Under the pieces are notes generated by a model. The model was not told where the DNA came from and did no database searches. It saw only the letters and a program-made list of their open reading frames with translations. Positions 10,927-32,000 of a DNA stretch of 32,000 bases are shown piece by piece. Numbering within the stretch: position 1 is the first letter of the stretch; each line of letters opens with the position of its first letter. Source of the DNA: Arthrobacter sp. UC242_113 (lineage in GTDB: Bacteria > Actinomycetota > Actinomycetes > Actinomycetales > Micrococcaceae); NCBI RefSeq assembly GCF_044054585.1, contig NZ_CP171968.1:4484740-4516739 (forward strand), given 5' to 3'. A program made the position numbers and the translations under genes.

Positions 10927-10981
10927 GCGACAAAGGCCTTAAGTGATGAGGATCACATCAATTACGACACTGTTGCGTGTC

Positions 10982-18890: not shown

Positions 18891-19018
18891 GCGACAGGAT
18901 GTGAGGACGCGTCAGGCGTGAGGCGACGGGATGTGAGGAAGCGTCAGGCCTGAGGCGACGGGATGTGAGGAAGCGTCAGGCGGGAGGCGACGGGATGTGA
19001 GGACGCGTCAGGCGCCGT
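18891..19018. repeat. 32-bp tandem repeat array B (4 copies), inverted relative to array A
   Basis: Units begin at 18891, 18923, 18955 and 18987: GCGACRGGATGTGAGGAMGCGTCAGGCNNGAG. The core CGACGGGATGTGAGGACGCGT is the reverse complement of the array A core ACGCGTCCTCAC(TTTT)CGTCG. The last unit contains the stop codon of the ABC ATPase gene (19008-19010). Confidence 0.9.
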
Positions 19019-19766
19019 AGTGCACCACGATGGTCCGGCGGGGCGTCGTGCTGGGGACACCGTCGCCGTCGTCAGAATAGGCCACCGTGCTCACGCGCAC
19101 GCCGTACAGGGCTGACAGTTCGGCGTCCGTCAGGAGTTCCGCCGCGTGTCCGGTCCGCACACCCGAGCGGCCCAGCAGGACCACGCGGTCGGCAAGGTGC
19201 AGGGCGTGGTCGGGATGGTGGGTGCTCAGGAGCAGGGCCATGCCGTCGGCCATCAGTTCCCGCAGCAGTGTCAGGACACGTGCCTGGTTCTTGAGGTCCA
19301 GGCCGGTGGCGGGCTCGTCGAGCACCAGGATGGGTGAGCCGGCGGCGATGGCCCGGGCGATCAGTATCAGCTGCTGTTCGCCTCCGCTGAGGGTGGGGAA
19401 ACGCCGGTCCCGCAGCCCTGCCGCGCCCACCCGCTCCATCGCCTTCAGGGCCGCGTCGTGGTCGGATGCCCCGGGTGTCCGGAACACCCCAACGTGCCGC
19501 GCCCGCCCCATCAGGACCATGTCCAGCGCCCGGTAGGCGAAGGCGCTGCCGTGGGCCTGCGGGACGTAGCCGGCGCTCTCACTGCGCCGGACCGTTCCTT
19601 CCTGCGGGTCCAGCAACCCGGCGGCACAGCGGACCAGCGTGGTCTTGCCGCTGCCGTTGGGGCCCAACACGGCGGTGGCGGTCCCCGGCGGCACCCGGAA
19701 GCTGACGCCGCGGAACACCCAGTCGCGGGGCGAGTAGCCGAAGCCCACGCCGTCGAGTTCAAGCAC
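19008..19766 (-). CDS. ABC transporter ATP-binding protein, FecE/BtuD (iron-chelate/cobalamin) type
   Basis: Walker A GPNGSGKTT, signature LSGGEQQLILIARAI, Walker B ILVLDEPATGLD. It overlaps the permease stop by 8 nt. Confidence 0.9.
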   Translation of the reverse strand: MLELDGVGFGYSPRDWVFRGVSFRVPPGTATAVLGPNGSGKTTLVRCAAGLLDPQEGTVRRSESAGYVPQAHGSAFAYRALDMVLMGRARHVGVFRTPGASDHDAALKAMERVGAAGLRDRRFPTLSGGEQQLILIARAIAAGSPILVLDEPATGLDLKNQARVLTLLRELMADGMALLLSTHHPDHALHLADRVVLLGRSGVRTGHAAELLTDAELSALYGVRVSTVAYSDDGDGVPSTTPRRTIVVHYGA

Positions 19767-20946
19767 TGTCCCAGACCTTCTCCCGGTTCCGGCGCAGGAG
19801 CAGGAAGAACACGGGCGCGCCGATCAGGGCCGTGAGGACGCCGAGCGGGATCTCCCCGGCGGTGGCGGTGCGGGCGATGGTGTCCACCAGAACGATGTAG
19901 GCGCCGCCGAGCAGGAAGGAGACGGGCAGGAGGACACGGTGGTCAGGCCCCACCCACATCCGTGCAAGGTGCGGGATCACCAGGCCCACCCAGCTCACGG
20001 CGCCGCTGACGGCCACCGCGCCGGCCACGATCAGTGCCACCGCCACGAGCACCACCCAGCGGAGCGGGCGCGGGCGCACACCCAGGGCGGCGGCGTCCTC
20101 GTCGCCGAGCGACAGCACGTTGATCCGCCAGCGCAGGGCCACCAAGGCGGCGGCCCCGCCAAGGACAGGGATCAGGGCCACCGCCACTTTGGCAAAGGTT
20201 GCTGTGGATACGCTGCCCAGCAGCCAAAAGACGATGGCGGGCAGCGTGGTGTTGGGATCGGCAATGTAGGTCACCAAAGCCACCAGGGCGGAGAAGAAGG
20301 ACCCGGTGACCACGCCGCCGAGCACGATCATGAGCATCGGCGTCCCGGCGCGGCCCGAGGTGATCAGGAACAGGGTCCCGAGTGCCAGCAGCCCGCACAC
20401 GAAGGAGCCGCCCACCAGGAGCAGCGGACCCAGTCCGAGCAGCAGCGCCAGGGCTCCGCCGAAGGATGCGCCGGCAGACACGCCGATGATCTCGGGGCTG
20501 ACCAGGGGGTTGCGGAAAATGGCCTGCAGGGCTGCGCCGCCAATCGCCAGGCCGCCGCCCACCAGCAACGCGAGCAGGACCCGGGGCAGCCGGACCAGCA
20601 GGACCACATTCTGTTCGGTGCCGCTGGTTTGAACCGGGACCGGCGCAAGTTGGCCGCCGAGGATCTGGACCACGTGGTCCAGCGGCACGCCGTACCGCCC
20701 CACCGCCAGTGCCAGCACCGCCACCGCGGCAAGGAAGCAGGCACTTAAGGCGACGGGAACGACGACGGCGGCTTCCCGCCGTCGTTCTCCCGACTCCCGT
20801 TTCCCCAGCGTGTGCGCCCGTGCCTGCCGTTCTACAGCGCCGCCCGGGCCGGCAGCCGGGCCCGCCCGTGGCAGTGGCGGCTGCGCCGGCCCCAGGCCGC
20901 CGGGCCGCCGCCTGCCCAGCCGCGGGGAGCCTGCCTCATCAAGCAT
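19759..20946 (-). CDS. FecCD-family ABC permease (iron-chelate/B12 type)
   Basis: The body is a typical FecCD permease (RLPRVLLALLVGGGLAIGGAALQAIFRNPLVSPEIIGVSAGASFG...). The start is ambiguous. ATG 20946 overlaps the upstream binding-protein stop (ATGCTTGA) and gives a ~60-aa Arg/Pro/Gly-rich leader. An internal GTG just before the first TM helix is also possible. Track start 21009 is unlikely. Confidence 0.8.
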   Translation of the reverse strand: MLDEAGSPRLGRRRPGGLGPAQPPLPRAGPAAGPGGAVERQARAHTLGKRESGERRREAAVVVPVALSACFLAAVAVLALAVGRYGVPLDHVVQILGGQLAPVPVQTSGTEQNVVLLVRLPRVLLALLVGGGLAIGGAALQAIFRNPLVSPEIIGVSAGASFGGALALLLGLGPLLLVGGSFVCGLLALGTLFLITSGRAGTPMLMIVLGGVVTGSFFSALVALVTYIADPNTTLPAIVFWLLGSVSTATFAKVAVALIPVLGGAAALVALRWRINVLSLGDEDAAALGVRPRPLRWVVLVAVALIVAGAVAVSGAVSWVGLVIPHLARMWVGPDHRVLLPVSFLLGGAYIVLVDTIARTATAGEIPLGVLTALIGAPVFFLLLRRNREKVWDSA

Positions 20947-22075
20947 TGAACTGCCGGTAGCTGGCGGACTGCCCGTTCTCCGCGGTCCGGAGAATCTTGT
21001 CCAGCTCACCCTGCGTAAGTTCGTGGTTGTACAGGAACCTGAAGTATTCGGAAGCCTTGCTCCGCACCGCCGACCTCTGCTGGGGGAAGGCGATATCGCC
21101 CAGCCAGTGCCACATCAGGGCCGACTCCTGCCCGGGCGGATCCCAGCGGTAGCCGCCCAGCGGTACCCTGTACACGCGCTTCGAGCGGACTGCGGCCACG
21201 TTCTGCCACACGGGGTCCGAGTAGATGTCCTGCGGCATGGCGGCGTCGAAGTTGCCCAGCAGGATGACCTCAGGGTCCCAGCGCAGGACCTGCTCTACGT
21301 CCACGCCTACCATCCCGGAACCGGTCAGCGGGTCCTTGCCGGTTGGCGGATTGGAGCCTCCCACCAGCTTGATGTAGAAGTCGTTGTAGGTGTTGGCGCC
21401 GGCGACCTTGAGCCCACCCGTGAAGCGGTTGAAGTACAGGATGCTCGGGCCCTTGGACGCGCGCCCGGCCGCCAGGGACTTGACCTCGGCAAGCTCCCGG
21501 TCGCTCCGGGTCTTGAGCTCGGTGGCACGTTCGGGCTTGCCGAGCATGGCCGCGAACATGGCGACCCACGCGTCCACGTCCTCCTGCGTGCCGGAGTTCT
21601 TCAGCCCCAGAACCTGAAGCCCCGCCTTCTCCAGGGGCTCGATGAGCTGCGCGTCCGACCATTGGACCACCACGTCCGGGTTGAGGGCCCGGATGCTCTC
21701 AACGTTGGCGGTGAAGTCCTGCGTGGCGATGTCGTGCGGGAGGTCCAGGGTGGCGGGAAACATGGAGCCCATGATGCCGTCGTGCATGGCCACCCAGGAG
21801 GCGTTGTGCATGGCCGCGAGATGGTCGGCGCTGCGGTCGACGGCGACCAGCAGGGACGCCGACGGCATCGGGATGGTCACCACCCGGGCCACCGGCCGGT
21901 CAAAGGTCAGAGTCCGGCCGCGCTGGTCCGTGATGCTGATGCTGTTGGTGCTGCCCGCAGGGGACGACGGCGGCGCGGTGCCGGATGCGCCGCATCCGGC
22001 CAGCAAGGCGGCGGAGCCGCCCGCAACAAACACCTGTAGGGCGGCGCGGCGGTTTAGGTCTGCAGCTGTCATCAT
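20939..22075 (-). CDS. ABC substrate-binding lipoprotein, class III (FecB/BtuF-like) periplasmic binding protein, Tat-type signal
   Basis: N-terminus MMTAADLNRRAALQVFVAGGSAALLAGCGAS combines a twin-Arg-like motif with a lipobox. The size and position as first gene of the FecBCD-type operon fit this call. The ligand cannot be determined from sequence. Confidence 0.8.
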   Translation of the reverse strand: MMTAADLNRRAALQVFVAGGSAALLAGCGASGTAPPSSPAGSTNSISITDQRGRTLTFDRPVARVVTIPMPSASLLVAVDRSADHLAAMHNASWVAMHDGIMGSMFPATLDLPHDIATQDFTANVESIRALNPDVVVQWSDAQLIEPLEKAGLQVLGLKNSGTQEDVDAWVAMFAAMLGKPERATELKTRSDRELAEVKSLAAGRASKGPSILYFNRFTGGLKVAGANTYNDFYIKLVGGSNPPTGKDPLTGSGMVGVDVEQVLRWDPEVILLGNFDAAMPQDIYSDPVWQNVAAVRSKRVYRVPLGGYRWDPPGQESALMWHWLGDIAFPQQRSAVRSKASEYFRFLYNHELTQGELDKILRTAENGQSASYRQFNA

Positions 22076-22100
22076 TGACTCCCTGCGCGTGGGTCTTCAC

Positions 22101-22129
22101 AGCATCCGCTTCAGGGGCAGAGCTGTCAA
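22101..22129 (-). promoter_or_regulatory. candidate sigma-70-type promoter for the FecBCD-type operon
   Basis: The minus strand reads TTGACA (22129-22124), a 17-nt spacer, then GATGCT (22106-22101). This implies a leader of only about 20 nt before ATG 22075. Confidence 0.3.
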
Positions 22130-22275
22130 CGCTTTGTCCTGCGTTCGGCGAGGGGCGGGTCTCGCTGCCCGGACCTGGCCGCACGCCGCCGGTCCCTTGT
22201 CGGCGCCATGTTCCCTTGTCCGGGTCAGGGGCCCGGTGCTACTTTCAGAGGACGCTCGCAGAAGGTGGCCACGGG

Positions 22276-23049
22276 ATGGTTATCGATGGTGCCCAGTTGT
22301 TCGTCCGCTATGCCTATCCGCCCAATTCACGGGGCAGCTGCGGCCCGCCGGACAGCGACGCCCTGCTCCACTACGGGCAATCCGGCGTCACGGACCAGGG
22401 GCTCCGCGAACTGGCCAAGGGTTTTGCCGGCGCCTGGCCCTACCTCGAACTGATCGCCGGATCGCACGGCATCACGGACCCGCTGGACGCCCGCGTGGTG
22501 GAGGCCTACTGGGTGGGCAACAGCCTCCTGGATACCGTCGGCATCACCAACCTCGGCAACTCCATGGAGGACAGGTTCCGGGCGCGCACTGGGCGGCAGT
22601 TCCCGCATCTGGTGGAAGGCGTCCTGGCGGGCGGGGTCCCGCACCACAGCTTCCACGTGTTCGAAATCTACCCGTGGCTCGGCCTGCTCCGCGACGAACG
22701 CCGGCACGCCACCGCGCTGAACGTGCTGGACAGGTGCCGGATCCGCTGGGGGCAGGTGCTCGCGATCTCCGGGGACGACGCCGTCGTGCGGTCCCGGCCG
22801 CTGGTCTGGGACGGCACGGCGCTGGACGTCGGCGAACCCGTGGTGGAATCGGCCAAGTTTGCCGTTAACGGGACCGGTTTCGTGGCCGGGCTGGCCTTGG
22901 GTGACGTCGTCTCGTTGCACTGGGACTGGGTGTGCGACCGCCTCTCCACCCACCAGCTGCAGCAGCTCAAGCACTTTACGGCGCGGCACCTCCGGATTGC
23001 CAACAGCGGCGTCGAACACCGCGGCGCAGCCATAGCGCTCGAACACTAG
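22276..23049 (+). CDS. conserved hypothetical protein (I recall similar proteins annotated DUF6390; unverified)
   Basis: This is the C-terminal 257 aa of track ORF 21985..23049. ATG 22276 is preceded by GAAGGTGG. Sequence MVIDGAQLFVRYAYPPNSRGSCGPPD...VEAYWVGNSLLD... It is divergent from the ABC operon and convergent with the hydrogenase operon. Confidence 0.6.
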   Translation: MVIDGAQLFVRYAYPPNSRGSCGPPDSDALLHYGQSGVTDQGLRELAKGFAGAWPYLELIAGSHGITDPLDARVVEAYWVGNSLLDTVGITNLGNSMEDRFRARTGRQFPHLVEGVLAGGVPHHSFHVFEIYPWLGLLRDERRHATALNVLDRCRIRWGQVLAISGDDAVVRSRPLVWDGTALDVGEPVVESAKFAVNGTGFVAGLALGDVVSLHWDWVCDRLSTHQLQQLKHFTARHLRIANSGVEHRGAAIALEH

Positions 23050-23144: not shown

Positions 23145-23515
23145 GCCGCGCTGTCGGGATGCTCGGGGGTCTTGACGGCCGTCGCGTCGCGGGCGGACGA
23201 CTCGCCGGTTGGCCGGCCGGCGGGCGAATCCTCAGTTCCCGTGTGCTCGCGTCCCGGTTCGGTGCCCTCCTCCTTGATGACGTCCTCGCCCCTGCGGGTG
23301 GTGCTGACGCCGACGTCAGCCGGAGCGGGTGCCGCGTCTTCAGGGGTTTCGTCCGCTCCGGGCTGGGCCGGTTCCTTTAGCGGTGGTTCGCTGCCGAAGG
23401 CCCGGGCTGTCCCCGGTGCGGTGCCCTCTGCGGCGCCCTTTGCGGCGGTTTGCTCGGTTTCCTCGGCCGCGCGCGTTTCCTCGCCGGCGGGGTCAGGCTG
23501 GTTCGTGGGCGACAT
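23129..23515 (-). CDS. acidic, Pro/Glu/Ala-rich intrinsically disordered protein, last gene of the hydrogenase operon
   Basis: 128-aa ORF. A strong SD (AAGGAGAGCAGC) lies immediately upstream of ATG 23515. The start is embedded in the 3' end of hypC with a 23-nt overlap. Composition is low complexity and no motif was recognised. Confidence 0.5.
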   Translation of the reverse strand: MSPTNQPDPAGEETRAAEETEQTAAKGAAEGTAPGTARAFGSEPPLKEPAQPGADETPEDAAPAPADVGVSTTRRGEDVIKEEGTEPGREHTGTEDSPAGRPTGESSARDATAVKTPEHPDSAAPQSP

Positions 23516-23798
23516 GCTGCTCTCCTTGTGGTTGTTGTGCCGGCTGGGATCCGGGGCCGGTGTCCGCCGGGCGGCCCATTAGCTCCAGTCCGTCCATGGC
23601 CTGTTCCGCGCCCGCGGCGTCCACGCGTTCCAGCGCGAAGCCCATGTGGATCAGGACCCAGGTGCCGGGTTCCAGGGGCCCCTCATCCAGCAGCCCGATG
23701 TTGATTTTCCGCTGCACTCCGGCCACATCGACGAGTGCGAGCTGGCCGCCGTACCCCTCGAGGAGTTCAACGACCCTGCCGGGTATTCCGAGGCACAT
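23493..23798 (-). CDS. hypC: HypC/HybG/HupF-family [NiFe]-hydrogenase assembly chaperone
   Basis: It begins with the invariant MCLGIPGRVVEL motif, followed by ...ALVDVAGVQRKINIGLL...PGTWVLIHMGFA. The 101-aa length includes a ~25-aa Pro/Gln-rich C-terminal tail. Confidence 0.88.
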   Translation of the reverse strand: MCLGIPGRVVELLEGYGGQLALVDVAGVQRKINIGLLDEGPLEPGTWVLIHMGFALERVDAAGAEQAMDGLELMGRPADTGPGSQPAQQPQGEQHVAHEPA

Positions 23799-23812: not shown

Positions 23813-24320
23813 CTACTTTGACGTGGAAAACAGGTTTGGAGTGGAAGAGTGCGGGCCGAGCAGGGACCCGACGGCGGCGACGGCCTTGGGCACCGCAGCG
23901 GCCACCGCCGGCGAGAGGCCGATCCCTTCGGACAGGTCCGCGGGGACACAGCCCACCACGTACGTGGCCGGCAGGCTGCCACCCATGGACCGAAGCCGGC
24001 CCAGCACTGCCGCCGGGTCCATGCCGTGGGGATCCAGCATGGCCCTGCCGTCCAGGTCCGCCGCGCTGACCCGGAGCACGCGGATGCTGCCCGGAGCCGA
24101 GTTCCCGTCCGCAGGCACAGTGTCCACGAGGACCAGGGTGTCCACGCCGGCGAGGAGATCGTAGGCGAGATGCATGCCCGCGGATGCCGTAGTCCACCAC
24201 GCGGACGCCGGGGGCGAGCGGCTGCGGATGGCCGGCGAGGTGCCGTGCCACCTCGGGGCCGAAGCCGTCGTCGTGCAGGAACAGGTTCCCGACGCCTGCC
24301 ACGAGGACGCCGGCGGTCAC
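23813..24320 (-). pseudogene. hupD: hydrogenase maturation endopeptidase (HupD/HyaD/HycI family) interrupted by a +1 nt frameshift
   Basis: The N-terminal 47 codons (GTG 24320; VTAGVLVAGVGNLFLHDDGFGPEVARHLAG...VRVVDYGIRG) are in one frame. The remainder (MHLAYDLLAGVDTLVLVDTV...LDPHGMDP..., track ORF 23813..24175) is in another frame. The junction reads atc cgc ggG c atg cat. Removing one G restores ...VVDYGIRGMHLAYDLL..., which aligns without gaps to E. coli HyaD ...[15 protein letters not shown].... Confidence 0.8.
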
Positions 24321-24436
24321 ATCCGCCGCACTTTCATGTACCGCCGGATGTCCGGAACTGAGCGGATTCCGACGTAGATGCCCCAGAGGGCCATCGCTGC
24401 CAGCACGGAAACAGTGGCCATTCCTATTGCCTTCAT
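24317..24436 (-). CDS. 39-aa single-pass membrane microprotein
   Basis: MKAIGMATVSVLAAMALWGIYVGIRSVPDIRRYMKVRRM has one TM helix and a basic tail. Its ATG overlaps the upstream stop (ATGA). Its TGA overlaps the downstream hupD GTG (GTGA). The track only shows it hidden in the tail of a spurious 271-aa ORF. Confidence 0.55.
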   Translation of the reverse strand: MKAIGMATVSVLAAMALWGIYVGIRSVPDIRRYMKVRRM

Positions 24437-25833
24437 TGCGGGTTTTCCTTTCCCTCCAGCGGCTCCAGTTCGTCGGGTGCGTAGTAGAAGGACCGGCCGT
24501 AGCCCTCGTGGAGATCGGCCGCCGGATCCTGCTCGAGGACGAGCCCGACGTGGGTGCTGCCGTCGACGTCGAAGTGCACGCTGGTGACCCGCCCGGTCTG
24601 TCCGCCGAAGAACAGGTCCTGGGCGTCGGCGCGCCGGCTCGGGTGCACACGCACCCGGCTGCCGCGCGCCACTGAGACGCCGTTGATCACGACGGCGTCC
24701 TGGTCCGGCCGGACACGGGCCTCCGCCTCCGGATTCCACCAGGGAACGTCCTGCCCGGCCGTGTTCCACGATTCGGCCGGGGCGAACTCGTCGGGATCCG
24801 CGGCGAACGCGTGCGGGTTCCGCAGGGCGCCATGCAGCTGCTGGAGGTCCTCCGGCGACATCGCCTCGCAGCGGTCGATGACGGCGGCGGCCCGCGGGTC
24901 CGTCGCCCGCGCCTCGGCCTTTTCCTCGTCGGTCAGCGTCAGCACCCGCAGGGTGAGGATCTCGTCGATCTCCGTGGAGTCGAACAGCGCCACCGAACTT
25001 TCCGGGGCCACGGCAGGGTGGTCGTAGAGAATGATGGGTGAGACCAGCAGCACGTCGGTCTGGCCTTCGGGGCCGGCCAGCACCGGCCAACAGCGGTGCT
25101 GGGAACACCGCCCTGCTGCCTGCTCTGCCCACGCCGGCGGGTCCAGCAGCGAGACGAAGTCCCCGTCCCGCACGCCGAGCAGCACGTGGGCCCCGATGAA
25201 GGAGGCCGCGGTGGCGTCCTGCCGGTTCCCGGCCGGCAGGGGATGAGCCGAAAGTGGATTAGCCGTGTTGGCCGCGGTGACGCTGAGCCGCAGCAGCGCG
25301 CCGGACTCTTCGGCGGCATTAAGCCGCAGTTCGCCGCGGAGAGCACGACGGCGGCGCACCAGCCGGCCGGCCGGCCTCCCGGCGTCGTCCTTGAGTTCCT
25401 CGACGTCGAGTCCCTCGGGGACCTCCACGGGCAGGACCTGTCCGGCCCGGAGCTGGGCCACGGAGAACGGCCCGAACGCCGTTTCCTGTTCAACGGCCTC
25501 GTCCCAGCTCAGCCAGTTCGCACCGCCCACGGTGAGGCTGTCTACGGGAGTGAACCCGCCGCCGTCGTCCGCTTTTTCTGCCGTGCGCGTCTGCAGCTGC
25601 AGGAAGCGGAAATGGATTTCAAGCCCGGCCTCGGCGCCGGGGGCAAGCAGGCAGTCGGCGGACAGGGACGGTTCCTCCCCGCTGCCGTCCTCCGCGGCGC
25701 CCGGCGGACCCAGGATCCCGAACTGCCAGCGGACCCGGTTCTTCTGGGCGGAGGCGCGGTAGGGGTAGAGCAGGTAGCCCTCGTAGAGGACTGCGTCGGC
25801 GACGGCCCGGGCAAGGGCCAGGCTGGTGTTCAT
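24433..25833 (-). CDS. conserved hypothetical protein of the hydrogenase operon (466 aa)
   Basis: ATG 25833 overlaps the upstream stop (ATGA), and the track ORF extension to 25965 is rejected. Sequence MNTSLALARAVADAVLYEGYLLYPYRASAQKNRVRWQFGILGP... has coding-like composition throughout. No motif was recognised. Confidence 0.7.
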   Translation of the reverse strand: MNTSLALARAVADAVLYEGYLLYPYRASAQKNRVRWQFGILGPPGAAEDGSGEEPSLSADCLLAPGAEAGLEIHFRFLQLQTRTAEKADDGGGFTPVDSLTVGGANWLSWDEAVEQETAFGPFSVAQLRAGQVLPVEVPEGLDVEELKDDAGRPAGRLVRRRRALRGELRLNAAEESGALLRLSVTAANTANPLSAHPLPAGNRQDATAASFIGAHVLLGVRDGDFVSLLDPPAWAEQAAGRCSQHRCWPVLAGPEGQTDVLLVSPIILYDHPAVAPESSVALFDSTEIDEILTLRVLTLTDEEKAEARATDPRAAAVIDRCEAMSPEDLQQLHGALRNPHAFAADPDEFAPAESWNTAGQDVPWWNPEAEARVRPDQDAVVINGVSVARGSRVRVHPSRRADAQDLFFGGQTGRVTSVHFDVDGSTHVGLVLEQDPAADLHEGYGRSFYYAPDELEPLEGKENPQ

Positions 25834-26483
25834 GGCCGTTCCCCTGACACATCGGCCGCAGCCTGGGCCAGGAGTTGCTCCACCGTGGCTTCCCACGACG
25901 TGAGGCCCGCGGCGGACTTGTACCGGGTGAGTGCTGCCAGGACGTCGCGGTCCAAGCGGATCCATCCGGCGTTGGGGAAGTACTGGTCCATCAGGCTCCG
26001 CCAGGCGGCGACCGGCAGCTTATACGACGCTTCGCGGTCCCACGGCACCTGTTCCACGGTGAACCCGGTCTGCCCTTTAGTGAACACGGTGCCGGAAAAC
26101 AGCAGCTCCAGCGGTATCTCGCCGTCGCGCAGGGCATGCAGGTATTTGGCGGCGGCCACATCGAAATCAAACGTGCAGGGCAGCGGGAGGTCCGCCTCGG
26201 TGCTGCCCGTGAAACCCTGCACCATGGTGCTGCACTGCATCCAGACGAACGACTTGAGCGTGGTGGGCCAGCGGCCGCGGCCGCCGAAGAGGTCCAGCAG
26301 GCCCGCCTCCTCCTCGGGCGCGTAGCCGCGGCGCTGCGGCAGGATCCTGACCTGGCAGCGCAGCGCCACGGCGTGCACCGTGGCCCCGGTGCTTTCCGTG
26401 AGCTGCAACCTGGCCGTCAGCTGCGGGGCGGCGGCGTAGGGTTCGGGCCGGATCTCCAGCACGGCGAAGGAAAGCTCAGTCAC
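25830..26483 (-). CDS. conserved hypothetical protein of the hydrogenase operon (217 aa; I recall DUF6084-type annotation, unverified)
   Basis: The GTG start overlaps the upstream stop (GTGA). Sequence MTELSFAVLEIRPEPYAAAPQLTARLQL...VALRCQVRILPQRRGY... has no recognisable catalytic or cofactor motif. Confidence 0.7.
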   Translation of the reverse strand: MTELSFAVLEIRPEPYAAAPQLTARLQLTESTGATVHAVALRCQVRILPQRRGYAPEEEAGLLDLFGGRGRWPTTLKSFVWMQCSTMVQGFTGSTEADLPLPCTFDFDVAAAKYLHALRDGEIPLELLFSGTVFTKGQTGFTVEQVPWDREASYKLPVAAWRSLMDQYFPNAGWIRLDRDVLAALTRYKSAAGLTSWEATVEQLLAQAAADVSGERP

Positions 26484-27280
26484 CGGGGGCCTCCCGTACC
26501 GGACGTATTGATGCCGGACGCCGTGCTGCCCGGTGCTGTGCGGCCCGGTGCTGTGGGGCCCGATGCCGCGCTCGCGGATGCCGGGCTGGCGGAATCTGCC
26601 GGAGCCGGAACGCTGCGCCGGGAGATCCGGTCGAAGAAGGCGGCGAGCTCATCGCGCGCCTCTTGGCCGCCGTCGAACCCCCGCCAGAGGCGGCGCAGCC
26701 GGCCAACAAGCTCGTAGCAGGCGTCCACGGGAACGAGGTGGCAGTCCGCGGCGGCCCTGCCCGGACCCGGGCCGCGGATCAGCAGCGCCTCGGTGTCCGG
26801 CGCCGCGAGGCCGAGGGCCGGGTTGTGGGCCAGCACGCCGTCCCAGGCGGCGAGAGGCAGTTCCGATTCCGTGGCCCCGGCCGGACCCGGGTAGAACGCC
26901 ACCGTGCGGCCGAGTTGGGAACTGCGGAAGAAGAACGCCAGACCCACCGGAATTTCCAGTTCGTCCCACTGCCCAGGGCCGAGATCGAAGCCGGGGAAGG
27001 AGAGGTATCGGTCCGGCACCGAGCGGTAGCGCAGATGGGCCGTCGCATCGGTGAAGAGGAGGTAGCAGGGCCGGCAGGTGCACATCATCGCGTGGCTCCC
27101 CAAGTCCACCACGTGCTGGTGTGCATCGGAAATCGGTTCGCCGCACATCTCGCAGCATTCCCCGGCGGCGGGAGCAGGCCGGTTCGCCGAAATTCGCCGC
27201 AATAAGGCCACCGGCAAGGCGCCGTTGGCCTGGCCGCTTTCCGAGCCGCGCCCTGTACCTCCTCCGTTCTCCATGTCCAT
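26480..27280 (-). CDS. conserved hypothetical Cys/His-rich protein of the hydrogenase operon (266 aa; I recall DUF5947-type annotation, unverified)
   Basis: ATG lies 1 nt after the hhyE-like stop (TGAgATG). It contains CCEMCGEPISDAHQHVVDLGSHAMMCTCRPC. It has a Ser/Ala/Pro/Thr-rich C-terminal tail. Confidence 0.7.
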   Translation of the reverse strand: MDMENGGGTGRGSESGQANGALPVALLRRISANRPAPAAGECCEMCGEPISDAHQHVVDLGSHAMMCTCRPCYLLFTDATAHLRYRSVPDRYLSFPGFDLGPGQWDELEIPVGLAFFFRSSQLGRTVAFYPGPAGATESELPLAAWDGVLAHNPALGLAAPDTEALLIRGPGPGRAAADCHLVPVDACYELVGRLRRLWRGFDGGQEARDELAAFFDRISRRSVPAPADSASPASASAASGPTAPGRTAPGSTASGINTSGTGGPR

Positions 27281-27281
27281 C

Positions 27282-28538
27282 TCAGCGGTCCTGTCCGCCG
27301 GCTGCCTGCAGTTCCGGGGCCATGCCGGGCGTCGGCGTCGGCGTGGGCTCGGCCGCCTCAGCCGCAGGTGCCGACTGCACGGACACCGCAGGCGGCACGG
27401 ACACGGCGGGCACGGGCACCGCTGCGGACACGGGCACCGCCGCAGACACTGGGGCCGGCTCCGCCGGTTCCGGTCCAGGTGCAGCGGGGACGGGTTCCAG
27501 CCCGGCCGGTGTCACCAGCGGGATTGCCTGCACCGGCGTCACGGCTGCCGGGGTTGCCGGCGGTACCGGGGCAATGGCAACCGGCAGCGGCCCGGACTGC
27601 ACGGACACCGTCGGGACCGCCACGGACATCACTCCGTTCCGGACCAGCAGCGGAAGCGGTTCCAGGTGCAGGTCCTTGTCCTCGAGGCAGGTGCCCGCCC
27701 GCCGCACGTCAAAGTGGCCGCGGCAGGTGGGGCAAGTGAGCAGGCCTCCGCCAGCCGGTGCCGCGAGGGCGCGCTGCAGCACGGCGCCGGCCATCGAACC
27801 TGTGCAGCGCGGGCAGTAGTCGCGGTACGCGTAGATGTCCTGCCCGGTCCGGCAGGCCAGCACCGCGTAGCCCCCGACCAGGAAGCCCGCCACCTCGCCG
27901 GGTTCGAGCCCGGCGATCTCCGGAACCGGTTCCCACGTGCCGCCGGACATGTCGTGCCAGGATTCTGCTGGCATGCCGCCGGCCGGATTGTTCACCCGGA
28001 CCAGCAACGAGTCCACCGGAATCAGCGCCGGGGCGCCCGGCTGCTTTTCAGCTTCGACAACGTCGATGGCCGTCACCTCGGGGGCGGCGTTCTGGATGGC
28101 CTCCTCGACGGCGTACTTGAGGGTGACGGACGACGACGGGCACCCCTGGCAGGTGCCGAGCAGCTTGAGCCGCACCACGCCGTCGGGACTGATGCCTTCG
28201 AGCTCCACGTCGCCGCCGTGGGAGCCAAGGTAGGGCCGGACACTGTCCAGCGCCGCGGCCACCCGTGCCTCCAGCGAATGGGGGTGCAGCCCGTGGATCA
28301 CCAGGAGGCCGGCCACCAGGCTGTCAGCGGTCAGCGCTTCAAGCGTGACGTCGTCGAGCTTTCCATGGGACTGCAGGATCTCCATGATCCGCTGCAGTCC
28401 CGCACCGTAAAGGTCTGTCACCTGCCGGACCAGGTCCTCGGCACGGCCGCGGGCCACCGCCCCGCCGGCGCCGAGGGCGTCAAGGAGTGTGCCGATTTGG
28501 TCGCCGTTCTGTAGTGGCGGCCGGTCCCCGGCGAGCAT
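27282..28538 (-). CDS. hhyE: NifU-like / Cys4 (Rieske-fold-like) putative iron-sulfur protein, HhyE-like, with a long Pro/Ala/Val-rich tail
   Basis: The central Nfu-type domain reads LDSVRPYLGSHGGDVELEGISPDGVVRLKLLGTCQGCPSSSVTLKYAVEEAI. A second domain has paired knuckles YCPRC...LTCPTCRGH. About 120 C-terminal residues are P/A/V low complexity. ATG lies 3 nt after the hhyL stop. The symbol follows the mycobacterial HhyE naming and is tentative. Confidence 0.75.
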   Translation of the reverse strand: MLAGDRPPLQNGDQIGTLLDALGAGGAVARGRAEDLVRQVTDLYGAGLQRIMEILQSHGKLDDVTLEALTADSLVAGLLVIHGLHPHSLEARVAAALDSVRPYLGSHGGDVELEGISPDGVVRLKLLGTCQGCPSSSVTLKYAVEEAIQNAAPEVTAIDVVEAEKQPGAPALIPVDSLLVRVNNPAGGMPAESWHDMSGGTWEPVPEIAGLEPGEVAGFLVGGYAVLACRTGQDIYAYRDYCPRCTGSMAGAVLQRALAAPAGGGLLTCPTCRGHFDVRRAGTCLEDKDLHLEPLPLLVRNGVMSVAVPTVSVQSGPLPVAIAPVPPATPAAVTPVQAIPLVTPAGLEPVPAAPGPEPAEPAPVSAAVPVSAAVPVPAVSVPPAVSVQSAPAAEAAEPTPTPTPGMAPELQAAGGQDR

Positions 28539-28541
28539 GGC

Positions 28542-30335
28542 CTACTCGCCGGTCAGGGTTTGGGTGGGGGAATGGAGCATGTCCAGCGTCTGCCCGTTGC
28601 CCAGGTACATGTGGACACCGCACGGAAGGCAGGGATCGAAGCTGCGGACGGTGCGCATGATGTCGATGCCCTTGAAGTGCTCCCGGTCGTTCTCCTCAAA
28701 GATCGGCTGCCCCTGGACCGCGTCCTCGTAGGGGCCGGAAACGCCGTTGGAGTCGGTGGGGCTGGCATTCCACGGGGTGGGCGGGTAGGGGTGGTAGTTG
28801 GCGATCTTGCCGTCGCGGATCACCATGTGGTGGGACAGGACGCCGCGGACCGCCTCGGTGAAGCCGCAGCCGATGCCTTCATCCGGGACCTCGAAGGTTT
28901 CCCACGTCTTGGTGCGTCCGGCCCGGATCTCCTCGAGGGCCTTTTCCGCGAAGTGCAGCGCAGCAGCCGCGGCGTAGGCCTGGAAGTAGGTGCGGGCGCG
29001 GTTGCGTTCGAGCGTGTTGCTCCACTGCGGGATGTTCCACTCGAATGTGACGGGCCCCTTCAGTGCGGTCTTGGGCAGGTTGAGCTGGACGCTCCTGCCG
29101 GTGGCCTTGACGTAACCGATGTCCACGAGCCCGGCGAGGGCCGTGGCCCAGAGCCGTGCGAGCGGGCCGCCGCCGGTGTCCAGGGCGAGGTTGTCCTGGC
29201 CGTCGAACCAGCGCGGGGACATGACCCAGCTGTACTTGTCTGCAAGGTCGCGCTTCTGCGGCCGCGGGTTGGTGTGCTGGTTCCACGGATGCCTGCGGTC
29301 CACCGGGTTGCCCAGCGGATCGTGGGTGACGAACATTTCCTGGTCTTCCCAGTCCTCGTAGTACGAGGAGCCGAGCATGATCCGCAGGCCCAGGTTGATG
29401 CGCACCAGGTCGGTGGTGACCAGTTTGCCGTCCACCACCACGCCCGGGGTGACGAACATCTTCCGGCCCCACTCGGTCATGTCCTTGTATTCGAAGTTGC
29501 AGTAGTCCGGGTCCTGCAGCGACCCCCAGCAGCCCAGCAGCGTCCGCCGGAGCCCCACCTGCTCATAGCCCGGCAGTGCCTCGTAGAAGAAATCGAACAG
29601 GTCGTCGTGCATCGGGACGACCTTCTTCATGAACTCGACGTAGCGCATGAGCCGGGTGAGGTAATCCGTCATCAGCTGGATTGTCGCCACCGTCCCCACA
29701 CCACCCGGATAAAGCGTGGAGGGGTGCACGTGGCGGCCCTCCATCAGGCAGAACATCTCACGGGTGGCCCGGCTGACCTGCAGGGCCTCGCGGTAGAACT
29801 CGCCGGTGAAGGGGTTCAGCGAGCGCATGATGTCGGCGATGGTCCGGTAGCCGTGGTCGGCCTCATGGGGCGCCCGGGTGTTTTCAGCCTTGGCGAGGAC
29901 ACCGGGGTTGGTCTCGGAGACCATCTTTTCGCAGTAGTCCACACCGACGAGGTTTTCCTGGAAGATGTTGTGGTCGAACATGTACTCGGCGGCTTCGCCC
30001 AGGTTGACGATCCATTCGCCGAGGTTCGGGGGCTTGACGCCGTAAGCCATGTTTTGCGTATAGCAGGAACAGGTGGCGTGGTTGTCGCCGCAGATCCCGC
30101 AGATGCGGCTGGTGATGAAGTGGGCGTCCCTTGGGTCCTTGCCTTTCATGAAGAGGGAGTAGCCACGGAAGATCGAGGAGGTGCTCTTGCATTCCACGAC
30201 CTGGTTGTTCTCGAAGTCGATCTTTGTGTAGATGCCGAGGCTGCCGACGATCCTGGTGATGGGATCCCAGTTCATTTCCACCAGGTTGTTGTTACCCGTT
30301 CCGCTTCCGGAACCCATGGGAATTGTGGACGTCAT
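28542..30335 (-). CDS. hhyL: [NiFe]-hydrogenase large subunit, group 1h/5 (high-affinity Hhy type)
   Basis: L1 motif TSRICGICGDNH and L2 motif SFDPCLPCGVH are present, followed by a 22-aa C-terminal extension (MYLGNGQTLDMLHSPTQTLTGE) expected to be removed by the endopeptidase. ATG 30335 (MTSTIPMGSGSG...) is preferred. The track extension to 30521 overlaps hhyS and is Pro/Ser-rich noise. Confidence 0.95.
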   Translation of the reverse strand: MTSTIPMGSGSGTGNNNLVEMNWDPITRIVGSLGIYTKIDFENNQVVECKSTSSIFRGYSLFMKGKDPRDAHFITSRICGICGDNHATCSCYTQNMAYGVKPPNLGEWIVNLGEAAEYMFDHNIFQENLVGVDYCEKMVSETNPGVLAKAENTRAPHEADHGYRTIADIMRSLNPFTGEFYREALQVSRATREMFCLMEGRHVHPSTLYPGGVGTVATIQLMTDYLTRLMRYVEFMKKVVPMHDDLFDFFYEALPGYEQVGLRRTLLGCWGSLQDPDYCNFEYKDMTEWGRKMFVTPGVVVDGKLVTTDLVRINLGLRIMLGSSYYEDWEDQEMFVTHDPLGNPVDRRHPWNQHTNPRPQKRDLADKYSWVMSPRWFDGQDNLALDTGGGPLARLWATALAGLVDIGYVKATGRSVQLNLPKTALKGPVTFEWNIPQWSNTLERNRARTYFQAYAAAAALHFAEKALEEIRAGRTKTWETFEVPDEGIGCGFTEAVRGVLSHHMVIRDGKIANYHPYPPTPWNASPTDSNGVSGPYEDAVQGQPIFEENDREHFKGIDIMRTVRSFDPCLPCGVHMYLGNGQTLDMLHSPTQTLTGE

Positions 30336-30363: not shown

Positions 30364-31422
30364 TTACCAGGTGCGCCGGGCCCCGGTGAGGAGCTCGGGT
30401 CCGGGCCGGCGCCACTTGGGCTCCTGGTCCAGGGTGTGCGTCGTGATGCCCCGCAGGGTCCGGATGGCGGAGCCGTAGGGCCGGATGGTGCTGGTGGAAA
30501 GCTTGCCGCCGGGAGGCTCATCCATGAAGGGCATGAACTTGTCCGGGAAGCCGGGCATGGTGCAGCCGATGCAGATGCCGCCGACGTTGGGGCAGCCGCC
30601 GATGCCGTTCATCCAGCCGCGCTTGGGCACGTTGCACTTCACCACGGGGCCCCAGCAGCCGAGCTTGACGATGCACTTGGGGGACCCGTACTCGGTGGCG
30701 AAGTCGCCTTGCTCGTAGTAGCCGGCCCGGTCGCAGCCTTCATGGACCGTCTTGCCGAACAGCCACGTGGGTCGCAGTGCCTCATCCAGCGGAATCATCG
30801 GTGCCTGGCCGGTGGCCTGATAGAGCAGGTACGTCATGGTTTCGGAGAGGTTGTCAGGCTGGATCGGGCATCCGGGAACGCAGACGATGGGGATGCCGGC
30901 CTTGGACTTCCAGTCGTAGCCGAGGTAGTCCGGCACGCCCATGGCGCCGGTCGGGTTGCCGGCCATGGCGTGGATGCCGCCGTAGGTTGCGCAGGTTCCG
31001 GCGGCGATGATCGCGGTGGCCTTGGGTGCCAGGCGGTCCAGCCACTCGCTGGTGGTGATGGGCTGGCCGGTCTCGAGGTCGTTGCCGAACCCGCACCAGT
31101 AGCCGCCGGGGTCATGGAGTTTCTCGTTGGGAATGGATCCCTCGACCACCAGCACGAACGGTTCAAGTTCCCCCCGGTCCGCCTTGCGGAACCATTCCAG
31201 GAAATCGTCGGCCCCTTCCTGCGGGCCGCATTCGAAGTCGATCAGTGGCCAGTGCATGGCGATCTTCGGCAGGCCGGGCAGCGCCCCGAGGGCGATTTCT
31301 TCGACGCTCGGCTGGCTGGCCGCGGTCAGGGCGACCGAGTCGCCGTCACAACTGAGCCCTGCGTTGATCCACAGCACGTGGATGAGGGCTTCTTCGGCCT
31401 TGAGGGAAGTTTCCGTAGGCAT
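30364..31422 (-). CDS. hhyS: [NiFe]-hydrogenase small subunit, group 1h/5, no Tat signal peptide
   Basis: Fe-S ligand regions are present: LSCDGDS, GTCATYGG, CVPGCP, and KLGCWGPVVKCNVPKRGWMNGIGGCPNVGGICIGCTMPGFPD. The N-terminus MPTETSLKAEEALIHVLW lacks an RRxFxK motif. AAGAGG SD lies upstream of ATG 31422. Confidence 0.95.
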   Translation of the reverse strand: MPTETSLKAEEALIHVLWINAGLSCDGDSVALTAASQPSVEEIALGALPGLPKIAMHWPLIDFECGPQEGADDFLEWFRKADRGELEPFVLVVEGSIPNEKLHDPGGYWCGFGNDLETGQPITTSEWLDRLAPKATAIIAAGTCATYGGIHAMAGNPTGAMGVPDYLGYDWKSKAGIPIVCVPGCPIQPDNLSETMTYLLYQATGQAPMIPLDEALRPTWLFGKTVHEGCDRAGYYEQGDFATEYGSPKCIVKLGCWGPVVKCNVPKRGWMNGIGGCPNVGGICIGCTMPGFPDKFMPFMDEPPGGKLSTSTIRPYGSAIRTLRGITTHTLDQEPKWRRPGPELLTGARRTW

Positions 31423-31452: not shown

Positions 31453-32000
31453 TCAGTGTGCTTTTGTCAGGGCGCCGGTCAGGGGTTCTGACCCGGCTGC
31501 CCCGGAGGTTGGCGCCGCCGCTTGGGAGGTGGCGCCGTCGAGCCAGCCGTACCAGGCGGCGAGGCCTTCGCCGGTCGCGGCGGACAGCGTGAGGTATTCG
31601 GCCCGCCGATTGATCTGCCGGATGCGGCGCAGGCATTCTTCGACGTCGAAGTCGACGTAGGGGAGCAGGTCCGACTTGTTGACGATCACGAGGTCGGCTG
31701 CCATGAACATGTGCGGGTATTTCTGGGGTTTGTCATCACCTTCCGTTACCGAGACGATCACCACCTTGGCCGTTTCGCCGAGGTCAAAAAGCGCGGGGCA
31801 GACGAGGTTGCCCACATTTTCAATGAAGACCGTGGAGCCGGGCTCCGGGGCCAGCGCATCGAGGCCGTGCCGCAGCATGTCGGCATCGAGATGGCAGCCG
31901 GCTCCGGTATTGATCTGGATGACGGGGCGCCCGGTGGCGCGGATGCGGTCTGCGTCGAGGGACGTCTCCTGGTCCCCTTCGATGACACCCGCGTCCAGGC
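31453..32000 (-). CDS. hypB: hydrogenase nickel-incorporation GTPase HypB, 5' end off the window
   Basis: My translation to the right edge gives [49 protein letters not shown]...[19 protein letters not shown]...[19 protein letters not shown]...[10 protein letters not shown]. This includes the CH motif, ENVGNLVCP and NKxD. The track shows only the part from an internal Met. Confidence 0.9.

Follow-up and report, generated by a model that had tools for sequence, protein, structure and literature searches.

A conserved gene trio of the group 1h [NiFe]-hydrogenase operon in Arthrobacter sp. UC242_113: orthology, genomic linkage and a possible role in enzyme assembly

Group 1h [NiFe]-hydrogenases are thought to account for most of the atmospheric H2 taken up by soils. 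How these enzymes are assembled in air, by which route they reach the membrane and how their electrons are transferred to the respiratory chain are questions touched by three genes of the operon, which are an obvious place to look because they are its only conserved members without an assigned role. This conserved hypothetical trio of the group 1h/5 operons has already been described (PMC5900883, PMC6776052, PMC4377017, PMC6883350). It has been named collectively hhaABC (PMC6776052), PHG066-069 and MSMEG_2717 have been listed (PMC4377017, PMC6883350), and it is up-regulated along with the hydrogenase in Thermomicrobium roseum and Cupriavidus necator (PMC6776052, PMC4377017). The original prediction had put the trio forward as a fresh candidate, a view that gives way to this prior literature.

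Described orthologs and the locus in Arthrobacter

We analysed a stretch of 32,000 nucleotides of the Arthrobacter sp. UC242_113 genome (the window), in which the three genes are designated A, B and C (Table 1). By sequence comparison, the trio corresponds to the "three highly conserved hypothetical proteins" already reported for group 1h operons and known in C. necator as PHG067-069. In tblastn searches against the pHG1 genes the identities were 43.9% for A, 43.5% for B and 35.5% for C, and the pHG1 counterparts are annotated, in the same order, as DUF5947, DUF6084 and hypothetical, followed by a maturation protease. PHG067-069 and MSMEG_2717-2715 share with the window the order between hhyL plus a NifU-like gene and hupD; the Pfam families of A and B are identical to those of PHG067 and PHG068, and the overlaps of 4–8 nt are also alike. 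Nothing essential differs, so that the genes of the window are the Arthrobacter orthologs, and the window contributes no new kind of gene. In contrast to C. necator, the HhyE of the window is long and carries a Rieske domain, and the DUF6893 gene lies before the protease gene and not after it. The question is sharpened here by comparative evidence: natural fusions that join C to the protease or B to C, a microprotein invariably encoded next to the protease gene, eight invariant metal ligands in A and a domain common to C and DrmA.

Table 1. Genes of the group 1h hydrogenase locus in the window
Feature	Position	Strand	Length (aa)	Remarks
hhyS, group 1h [NiFe]-hydrogenase small subunit	30364..31422	minus	352	Pfam Oxidored_q6 and NiFe_hyd_SSU_C
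hhyL, group 1h large subunit	28542..30335	minus	597	Pfam NiFeSe_Hases
hhyE-like	27282..28538	minus	418	Pfam NifU (1.4e-22), Rieske_2 (5.2e-6)
Gene A	26480..27280	minus	266	ATG start; DUF5947; PHG067/MSMEG_2717 ortholog
Gene B	25830..26483	minus	217	GTG start; DUF6084; PHG068 ortholog
Gene C	24433..25833	minus	466	ATG start; without Pfam family; PHG069 ortholog
Gene S	24317..24436	minus	39	DUF6893 single-pass membrane microprotein; overlaps C (ATGA) and the protease gene (GTGA)
hupD/hycI-type large-subunit maturation endopeptidase	23813..24320	minus		Frame-corrected Pfam HycI, E 2.4e-13
hypC/hupF-type chaperone	23493..23798	minus	101	Pfam HupF_HypC (5.1e-21), TIGR00074

The coordinates, lengths and stop/start overlaps predicted for the trio were all confirmed on the minus strand, as was its position, with the NifU/Rieske protein HhyE on one side and the maturation genes on the other. 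Read directly from the sequence, the hhyE/A junction is TGA-g-ATG, the A/B junction GTGA and the B/C junction ATGA. The mechanical ORF of C is 510 aa long, from an upstream ATG; we preferred the 466-aa start because of the homologs and the conserved ATGA junction. Third-position G+C of the three ORFs is 0.81–0.87 (genome G+C, 68%), and each protein has thousands of homologs. From these two properties, together with the Pfam matches of A and B, we concluded that they are real genes and not chance ORFs.

The original prediction read stoichiometric co-production and a physical complex from the tight coupling. The coupling is real, but it is not specific to these three genes: it includes the hhyE gene and continues past C, by ATGA to the 39-aa gene and then by GTGA to the protease gene. 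Several unrelated same-strand pairs in the window overlap by 4–8 nt, and, as stop/start overlaps are frequent in this genome, an overlap by itself is little informative. The informative part is the conservation of the overlaps across phyla. Among 80 Actinomycetota loci, the 4-nt overlap was observed in 60/78 for A/B and in 68/77 for B/C, and 4-nt overlaps within the trio are likewise seen in C. necator pHG1.

The neighbouring genes encode a recognisable group 1h enzyme. HhyS is 85–99% identical across the 80 loci. HhyL has a 22-residue C-terminal extension beyond its DPCxxCxxH motif; its best PDB match, 5aa5_C (HofG of the Ralstonia eutropha actinobacterial-type hydrogenase), stops at the position of query His575, from which we concluded that the mature enzyme no longer carries the extension. 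The HhyE-like protein comprises an N-terminal helical region, a NifU domain with CxxC, a Rieske-like domain and a Pro/Ala-rich tail, and its PDB matches are confined to the NifU domain. In the window the reading frame of the protease gene is shifted by +1 at about 24179, where a run of G is one base too long as judged from the ORFs of relatives and a nucleotide alignment, and its HycI domain is whole only once this is corrected. The frameshift is either a sequencing error or the sign of a pseudogene; either may hold.

Linkage to group 1h hydrogenase genes

The trio had been proposed to be dedicated to group 1h, and phylogenetic profiling agreed with this. The order hhyS-hhyL-hhyE-A-B-C-...-hypC was found in 80/80 Actinomycetota loci, as far as the flanks reach, in a sample that was retrieved with the B profile and is biased towards close relatives. 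In a survey of 72,556 plasmids, where a large subunit >70% identical to HhyL was taken as 1h-type, A and C occurred in 13/13 records with a 1h-type HhyL (B in 11 of these) vs 0/117 with other [NiFe] large subunits. Plasmid pHG1 encodes three other hydrogenases, yet it has a single copy of the trio, adjoining the 1h genes. The gene order beside the 1h genes is constant across three bacterial classes, and a NifU-domain gene, in a long or a short form, always lies ahead of A. Streptantibioticus cattleyicolor has A and C, with B missing near its 1h genes.

The wider claim of a module of high-affinity hydrogenases in general is overstated. Methylacidiphilum fumariolicum SolV is reported to be without the trio while it keeps hupD and has an active high-affinity 1h enzyme (PMC7174314, PMC5364354). 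Since that enzyme functions, the trio is not a universal requirement of high-affinity hydrogenases.

Sequence and fold of the encoded proteins

The trio had been described as without an assignable function, and this view stood: A and B carry Pfam DUF names only, C has none, and NCBIfam and PDB sequence searches came back empty. A belongs to DUF5947 (PF19372; full-length, model 2-176/177; score 241.7 bits, gathering cutoff 25, E 4.9e-72). The Cys/His cluster noticed at the outset in A consists of the N-terminal motif C43-x2-C46-x7-H54-x-H56-x10-C67-x-C69-x2-C72, with C188 further on; none of the six Cys and two His varies in the alignment, which spans three bacterial classes, from Actinomycetota to Alpha- and Betaproteobacteria. 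AF2 models were available for A and C, of moderate quality (pLDDT 67 and 69). That of A has a confident alpha/beta domain (86-229) and a Cys region of low confidence, and Foldseek found no significant PDB fold match for it. As a candidate rubredoxin-type maturation factor (HoxR/HupI), A was rejected: it has no match to Pfam rubredoxin (PF00301), and its knuckles are 20 residues apart vs about 30, with an extra HxH and CxC, in the region modelled at low confidence. As a candidate Fe-S electron-transfer protein, it has no ferredoxin, Rieske or CDGSH family or fold match; judged from the sequence, a redox cofactor would be an equally suitable partner for its eight invariant ligands.

B belongs to DUF6084 (PF19562; full-length, model 1-211/213; score 325.2 bits, gathering cutoff 25, E 2.1e-97), and its alignment has no invariant Cys or His. 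C, whose family comprises at least 4381 clusters at 50% identity, has one nearly invariant Cys in the family alignment. On these grounds, neither B nor C is able to hold an Fe-S cluster alone. After the conserved N-terminal motif YEGYxLYPYRxSxxKNxxRWxFG, C has a beta-rich core (about 56-301), an acidic helical segment, a disordered linker of variable length and an SH3-like barrel (about 380-460). The Foldseek comparison proposed with the original prediction returned for C fold matches to DrmA (7s9v_A) and PetP, and none to a known maturation factor.

The PADLOC DrmA model (PDLC02573) matched 51/100 C-family members (best E 1.8e-10); the match spans positions 77-320 of the 1018 in the model and ends before the helicase core. 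Two independent methods thus point to a distant homology between the core of C and the N-terminal "chassis" of DrmA, although the TM-score with DrmA (PDB 7S9V) is low (0.22), and a C-family profile search by sequence did not retrieve the Serratia DrmA. [quoted passage not shown] C itself is not a DrmA (DISARM SF2 helicase): it shares the chassis-like region only, lacks the tandem RecA helicase domains, and its neighbours are hydrogenase genes and not drmB, drmC or other DISARM genes; DrmB- or DrmC-like matches were found neither for A nor for B. At its C-terminal end, C can be superposed on PetP over 70-80 residues (TM 0.67-0.78, rmsd 2.0-2.3 Å), with just 14-21% identity to PetP and to other SH3-like small barrels such as the nitrile hydratase beta C-terminal domain. 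As SH3-like barrels are widespread as adaptors, this match is one of fold and not of function. A weak match to Phage_TAC_7 recurred in 12/100 C-family members (best E 0.0011), and a search for phage homologs of the trio found none.

Gene S, absent from the original prediction, is a fourth coupled gene between C and the maturation protease. It belongs to DUF6893 (PF21833; 41.5 bits against a cutoff of 24.6, E 1.4e-10; NCBI name, 'DUF6893 family small protein'), and is present at exactly 39 aa in 75 loci. The consensus of 70 distinct sequences shows a single hydrophobic helix and, C-terminal to it, a basic motif. S adjoins the protease gene also in Streptomyces, Kitasatospora and C. necator.

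Possible functions and relation to known systems

Natural fusions link some of these genes directly. C is fused to a HycI/HupD maturation protease in seven clusters, each <50% identical to the others, with a linker of 10-50 residues, and B is fused to C in one cluster (P0472) of 28 members on many independent contigs; several of the natural fusions lie on independent contigs from different sources. Because a single frameshift can fuse overlapping neighbours, the fusions prove that co-localisation is tolerated and not that the partners function jointly. A, B and C diverge 4–5 times faster than HhyS/HhyL, at a rate like that of HupD, HypC and HhyE. The mirror-tree partial correlations for B–C (0.40) and A–C (0.38) were just under that of the positive control HhyS–HhyL (0.46); those for HhyL–A and HhyE–C were 0.28 and 0.29, that for C–HupD was near zero (0.08), and none was elevated for HhyS against A, B and C (0.09, −0.12 and 0.13). 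Of the physical complex originally envisaged, the B–C link at least is backed by the B::C fusion and the co-evolution signals; the complex itself, its substrate and the metal we infer. No PDB chain matched A, B or C in single-sequence and profile searches, and the sole 1h structure found there, 5AA5, matched HhyL. The trio are, therefore, not stable subunits of the crystallised group 1h enzyme.

The original prediction left assembly, O2-protection and electron delivery unranked. We favour assembly/maturation over electron delivery, mainly because natural fusions join C to the maturation protease, and we give about an even chance to the reading that A, B, C and the DUF6893 microprotein are a group 1h accessory module for assembly/maturation that does not belong to the mature catalytic HhyS-HhyL dimer. 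Immediately downstream of the trio come hupD and hypC, with which it is translationally coupled.

Electron delivery and membrane docking, by which a redox-active A and HhyE would take electrons from HhyS, B and C would be scaffolds and the microprotein would be the anchor for menaquinone reduction, appears unlikely to us. The invariant six Cys and two His of A and the HhyL–A and HhyE–C correlations are consistent with it, and an earlier proposal makes PHG067/MSMEG_2717 an electron acceptor (PMC6883350, citing Schafer 2013). Moreover, Hhy is membrane-associated, yet a transmembrane subunit has not been assigned to it (10.1101/769216, PMC7174314), and the coupled chain encodes a conserved single-pass membrane microprotein. 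However, B and C lack cofactor-binding residues, A matches none of the canonical ferredoxin, Rieske or rubredoxin families, the trio is missing from the solved 1h enzyme, and C is repeatedly fused to a protease that plays no part in the mature respiratory complex. Moreover, C. necator also has both the trio and the microprotein, although a cytoplasmic location and a low affinity are described for its 1h enzyme (PMC7174314). The loosely bound holoenzyme subunits of another reading, an oligomerisation or quinone-access scaffold like HucM of Huc that is lost during purification, would suit the strict co-occurrence with 1h and the scaffold-like build of C, in which a chassis-like core and a long, flexible linker precede an SH3-like adaptor similar to PetP, a peripheral cytochrome b6f subunit. 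We regard it as quite improbable, given the C–protease fusions, the divergence of the trio at 4–5 times that of the catalytic subunits and reports of a native Hhy of low molecular weight with only HhyL, HhyS and HhyE (10.1101/769216; PMC6883350).

In the hox/hup operons of aerobic hydrogenases, isoenzyme-specific accessory genes between the structural and hyp genes are the rule. The placement of the trio fits this rule, and so it would also fit a role in supplying, protecting or repairing the Fe-S clusters of the small subunit. In air, HhyE and A would make or restore the three [4Fe-4S] clusters of HhyS, with B and C as small-subunit chaperones like HoxO/HoxQ/HoxR of the O2-tolerant membrane-bound hydrogenases. 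The NifU-domain gene that always precedes A, the tightly coupled hhyE/A junction and the invariant Cys and His of A point in the same direction; but the NifU-like protein of C. necator is without a CxxC motif, the C fusions point to the large-subunit protease and to no factor peculiar to the small subunit, the HhyS correlations are not elevated, and homology to HoxO, HoxQ, HoxR or HoxT was not found, so this role seems improbable. Finally, the distant relationship of the C core with a domain of a DISARM helicase and the weak Phage_TAC_7 matches could suggest a hitch-hiking or nucleic-acid/defence cassette unrelated to the hydrogenase. This is close to refuted by the missing helicase core of C, the lack of DrmB-/DrmC-like matches in A and B and of phage homologs, the synteny with the 1h genes, which is invariant across three bacterial classes, and the co-regulation with the hydrogenase (PMC6776052).

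In the favoured assembly/maturation reading, C would be a multi-domain scaffold (DrmA-chassis-like core, flexible linker, SH3-like adaptor) to which B binds. Alongside HypC and the endopeptidase HupD, it may act on precursor HhyL that still bears its 22-residue extension, and would hold or present this precursor during NiFe cofactor insertion in air and cleavage of the extension. A would be a metal-binding partner, co-evolving with C and HhyL, that could supply or buffer metal or keep a site reduced, by analogy with HoxR, the rubredoxin-type factor of O2-tolerant hydrogenases. It is predicted that deletions of the trio would block the processing or stability of HhyL and not uncouple an intact enzyme, that A carries a defined metal and that the microprotein affects localisation. 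A bolder version, which seems unlikely to us, is that B, C, the microprotein and HupD make up a 1h-specific membrane-tethered maturation platform, in which C reuses the otherwise orphan 'chassis' domain of DrmA and A is the dedicated metal-handling partner. If true, the final proteolytic step would be coupled to membrane attachment of the atmospheric-H2 oxidiser, which would account for the membrane location of an enzyme without transmembrane subunits.

Two known systems offer themselves for comparison. HucM of the group 2a hydrogenase Huc (PMC10017518) is an extra operon-encoded protein that explains oligomerisation and membrane contact without transmembrane subunits; it is small and helical, co-purifies with its enzyme, and resembles neither the trio nor the microprotein. 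For the maturation factors of the O2-tolerant group 1d enzymes (HoxL/O/Q/R/T/V of R. eutropha, HyaE/HyaF, HupG-K), a relationship to the trio by sequence or fold was not detected. The trio was rejected as HyaE/HoxO, HyaF/HoxQ/HupH or HybE/HoxT chaperones, as 100 C-family and 26 B-family members gave no match to these Pfam families even at E up to 1. Likewise, A, B and C did not match rubredoxin, HyaE, HupH/HyaF or HybE in Pfam, and no known maturation factor was tied to them by fold or family. The Tat-proofreading roles of the group 1d factors are inapplicable, because the 1h small subunits are without a Tat signal. The CxxCG...CxPC knuckles of A are, however, reminiscent of the HoxR rubredoxin, and the group 1d factors likewise lie between the structural and hyp genes, are likewise specific to one hydrogenase type and are believed to be required when the enzyme is assembled in air.

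Gene calls and families of the trio

The hydrogenase operon stretch lies on the minus strand of the window, in an Arthrobacter genome of 68% G+C. The original prediction had described three adjoining genes of 266, 217 and 466 aa, here called A, B and C, joined by TGAgATG, GTGA and ATGA junctions; these lengths and junctions were found to be exact, with the genes on the minus strand. We take A, B and C to be real genes because their third-position G+C is 0.81–0.87 and because they match protein families. A belongs to Pfam DUF5947 (E 4.9e-72) and B to Pfam DUF6084 (E 2.1e-97).

Features of the hydrogenase operon stretch and its surroundings, in window positions
Feature	Position	Strand	Product length	Family or domains
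hypB, cut by window end	31878..31453	-		
hhyS	31422..30364	-		
hhyL	30335..28542	-		
hhyE-like	28538..27282	-		NifU plus Rieske
A	27280..26480	-	266 aa	DUF5947
B	26483..25830	-	217 aa	DUF6084
C	25833..24433	-	466 aa	
S	24436..24317	-	39 aa	DUF6893
hupD/hycI-type protease	24320..23813	-		
hypC	23798..23493	-		
DUF6390 gene	21985..23049	+		DUF6390
ABC transporter genes	19008..22075	-		FecB-like, FecCD, ATPase

No Pfam or NCBIfam family was found for C, whose own family is very large: at least 8000 proteins in a 90%-clustered collection, all named hypothetical, and at least 4381 clusters at 50% identity (profile search, E up to 1e-3). Roughly 1100 of the C-family matches are weak, with E between 1e-10 and 1e-3. 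The 90%-identity cluster of the 466-aa protein also contains many 217-aa DUF6084 proteins, probably an artefact of the clustering for which read-through or fused B::C sequences served as the bridge. B and C were unrelated by hhalign, and no relatives of B were detectable. Searches of NCBIfam and PHROGs returned nothing but one chance-level match to a DksA zinc finger. Nothing meaningful was obtained from the PDB with single sequences or profiles; no PDB chain matches A, B or C, and all three are absent from the only 1h enzyme with a solved structure. A weak Phage_TAC_7 match in C (12 of 100 members, best E 0.0011) was set aside, since homologous sequences share chance similarity, and a phage origin of the trio was rejected after tblastn of 50,697 phage records gave no match.

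Some observations concern the neighbouring genes. Relative to all close relatives, the window's hupD/hycI gene has a +1 frameshift near 24179, caused by an extra G in a run of G (CGCGGGC versus CGCGGC), and it lacks a low-complexity N-terminal stretch of 78–93 nt that the relatives have. The frameshift is either a sequencing error or the mark of a pseudogene; if it is real, HhyL processing would be compromised in Arthrobacter sp. UC242_113. Just beyond hypC lie a convergent DUF6390 gene and, on the hydrogenase strand, an ABC transporter (FecB-like binding protein, FecCD permease and ATPase), which may be linked to metal supply. In four comparison loci (L081, L083, L085 and L086), the small subunit of group 1h, the hhyS product, goes under the RefSeq name 'hydrogenase expression protein HypE'. 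This label is a systematic misnomer, because the protein carries the Oxidored_q6 and NiFe small-subunit C-terminal domains.

Association with group 1h hydrogenases and the coupled gene chain

A profile of B, scanned against one genome per species, matched 593 stretches. We examined the best 80 loci, all from Actinomycetota and ranging from Micrococcaceae to Rhodococcus, Nocardioidaceae, Pseudonocardiales and Micromonosporaceae, and observed the order hhyS-hhyL-hhyE-A-B-C-...-hypC in every one of them wherever the contig was long enough. In a plasmid collection, 130 records held a [NiFe] large subunit. In 13 records the large subunit is 71–85% identical to HhyL, which places it in group 1h; the other 117 reached at most 29%. 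A and C occurred in exactly these 13 records. Plasmid pHG1 of C. necator has four hydrogenases and a single trio copy, which stands beside the 1h genes with the same overlaps, and Methylocystis parvus shows the same arrangement.

The strict co-occurrence with group 1h, proposed as a check in the original prediction, was seen for A and C in the plasmid records and in the synteny of the 80 loci, but not throughout. B was found in only 11 of the 13 plasmid records. In Streptantibioticus cattleyicolor (pSCAT 556000-572000) the cluster reads protease-hypA-hypB-C-hemerythrin-like gene-hhyS-hhyL-NifU-A, and there is no DUF6084 gene within 16 kb of it; the trio can thus be incomplete or broken up. According to PMC7174314, Methylacidiphilum fumariolicum SolV has none of the trio genes, yet makes an active high-affinity 1h enzyme.

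Among the 80 loci, overlaps of 4 nt were observed at 60 of 78 A/B, 68 of 77 B/C, 54 of 75 C/S and 29 of 64 S/protease junctions, where S is the 39-aa gene following C; the remaining junctions were mostly overlaps of 1 or 8 nt. In the window, S overlaps both C (ATGA) and the protease gene (GTGA). The conservation of the latter two overlaps means that the coupled chain extends past the trio. A physical complex of the trio, which had been deduced from the overlaps, follows only weakly from them, because unrelated gene pairs in the window also often overlap.

The S product, a single-pass membrane microprotein named "DUF6893 family small protein" at NCBI, combines one hydrophobic helix with a basic motif at the C-terminus, RS(I/V)PD(I/V)xRY(L/M)KxRxM. 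Its length is exactly 39 residues in 75 loci (70 distinct sequences). DUF6893 genes of 33–38 aa, all above the Pfam threshold, directly follow the protease gene in Streptomyces fungicidicus, Kitasatospora and C. necator pHG1, in the last between PHG070 and hypF (about 10975-11076 of locus L081). As the gene lies on one or the other side of hupD across lineages, the microprotein always adjoins hupD. Since Hhy is reported to be membrane-associated with no transmembrane subunit (10.1101/769216, PMC7174314), the microprotein is a candidate membrane tether for Hhy. An unconfirmed 32-aa look-alike occupies the same place after the protease gene in Methylocystis.

Two forms of HhyE occur. The long one combines NifU with a Rieske-like domain; it was seen in the window, in 71 loci of Actinomycetota and in M. 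intracellulare, and the window protein has an extra Pro/Ala-rich tail of about 110 residues. The short form, NifU only, occurs in C. necator, Methylocystis, Streptomyces and Kitasatospora (compared at L081 7091-7669, L085 3054-3635 and L086 3135-3665); in C. necator even the CxxC is missing. We rejected the idea that the microprotein is an Actinomycetota-only anchor tracking the Rieske-containing HhyE, as it also lies by hupD in Streptomyces, Kitasatospora and C. necator, all with short HhyE.

Natural fusions and candidate functions

The most informative result on mechanism came from natural fusions, for which the C family was surveyed through its 150 best representatives. In seven clusters, which share less than 50% identity with one another, C runs through a linker of 10–50 residues into a complete HycI/HupD protease, and one cluster of 28 members has B followed by C. 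Sequencing error is unlikely, because several fusions come from independent contigs and different sources, one C::protease case belongs to a genome bin of Acidimicrobiaceae, and the B::C cluster numbers 28 members. To our knowledge, HupD-type proteases have a single job, the cutting of the large-subunit C-terminal extension after nickel is in place. The window's HhyL carries such an extension of 22 residues, and the crystallised HhyL ortholog (5AA5) terminates exactly at the conserved histidine.

In a mirror-tree analysis of 55 operons, a crude measure in which distances are not independent, the partial r values of B–C (0.40) and A–C (0.38) were just under that of the positive control HhyS–HhyL (0.46), and the value for C–protease was only 0.08. 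The evolutionary rates of A, B and C resemble those of HupD, HypC and HhyE and are 4–5 times those of the catalytic subunits.

The best-supported reading, to which we give about an even chance, is that the trio serves specifically the assembly and maturation of group 1h enzymes, as a module in which C would be the scaffold, B its partner, HupD its neighbour in action and A a metal-handling component. The alignment from Actinomycetota to Alpha- and Betaproteobacteria confirmed the predicted Cys/His cluster of A, with six Cys and two His invariant (C43, C46, H54, H56, C67, C69, C72 and C188), and by its sequence A is clearly a predicted metal protein; no invariant Cys or His was found in B. These eight ligands, together with the membrane microprotein, speak for a role of the trio in electron delivery and docking, and MSMEG_2717/PHG067, the orthologs of A, have been suggested as an electron acceptor (PMC6883350); we consider this role of the trio unlikely. 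Delivery or repair of Fe-S clusters together with the NifU-like HhyE appears quite improbable.

The trio is real and was correctly described, but it was already known as an open problem: Islam et al. 2019 named it hhaABC, and it is induced 5.5-fold in starved Thermomicrobium roseum (PMC6776052). It is thus the rediscovery of an acknowledged gap and not a new object, to which the window itself contributes only one more ortholog. In the literature searched, DUF5947 and DUF6893 were unmentioned, DUF6084 had a single mention in an unrelated paper on aurodox biosynthesis, and the searches turned up no native Hhy structure that includes extra subunits. MSMEG_2715-2718 are absent from the supplementary proteomics of 10.1101/769216.

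Structural comparison of C with DrmA

The Foldseek check proposed with the original prediction gave nothing significant for A, whose AF2 model (pLDDT 69) has a confident alpha/beta domain at 86–229 and a low-confidence Cys-rich segment; its best PDB match (E 0.18; Atp11, GAF and PCNA-like) was taken as noise. The AF2 model of C (pLDDT 67 overall, above 90 in the core) leaves an extremely conserved N-terminal motif unplaced. After this motif come a core rich in beta structure, an acidic helical stretch that is conserved (DATEIDEILTLR...TLTDEEK) and a disordered linker, whose length in homologs ranges from a few residues to about 170; the C-terminal part is an SH3-like barrel and can be superposed on PetP with TM 0.67–0.78. 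Against viral structures, Foldseek gave only generic SH3-like and long-beta-sheet matches.

Unexpectedly, the top PDB match of the whole C model was the DISARM helicase DrmA (7s9v_A; E 5e-5, probability 1.00, TM only 0.22). The PADLOC DrmA model matched residues 56–301 of the window protein (E 0.009) and, with E down to 1.8e-10, 51 of 100 diverse members of the family, over model positions 77–320 of 1018, upstream of the helicase core. This half of DrmA is described as a "structural chassis" without known relatives, which contacts the Zn-rich DrmB (Bravo et al., PMC9142583). A and B were considered as DrmB-like partners and rejected, neither being DrmB-like. The core of C and the N-terminal chassis of DrmA are remote homologs by two independent methods, Foldseek and PADLOC; we read this likeness as a scaffold domain common to both proteins and not as a sign of a role in defence.
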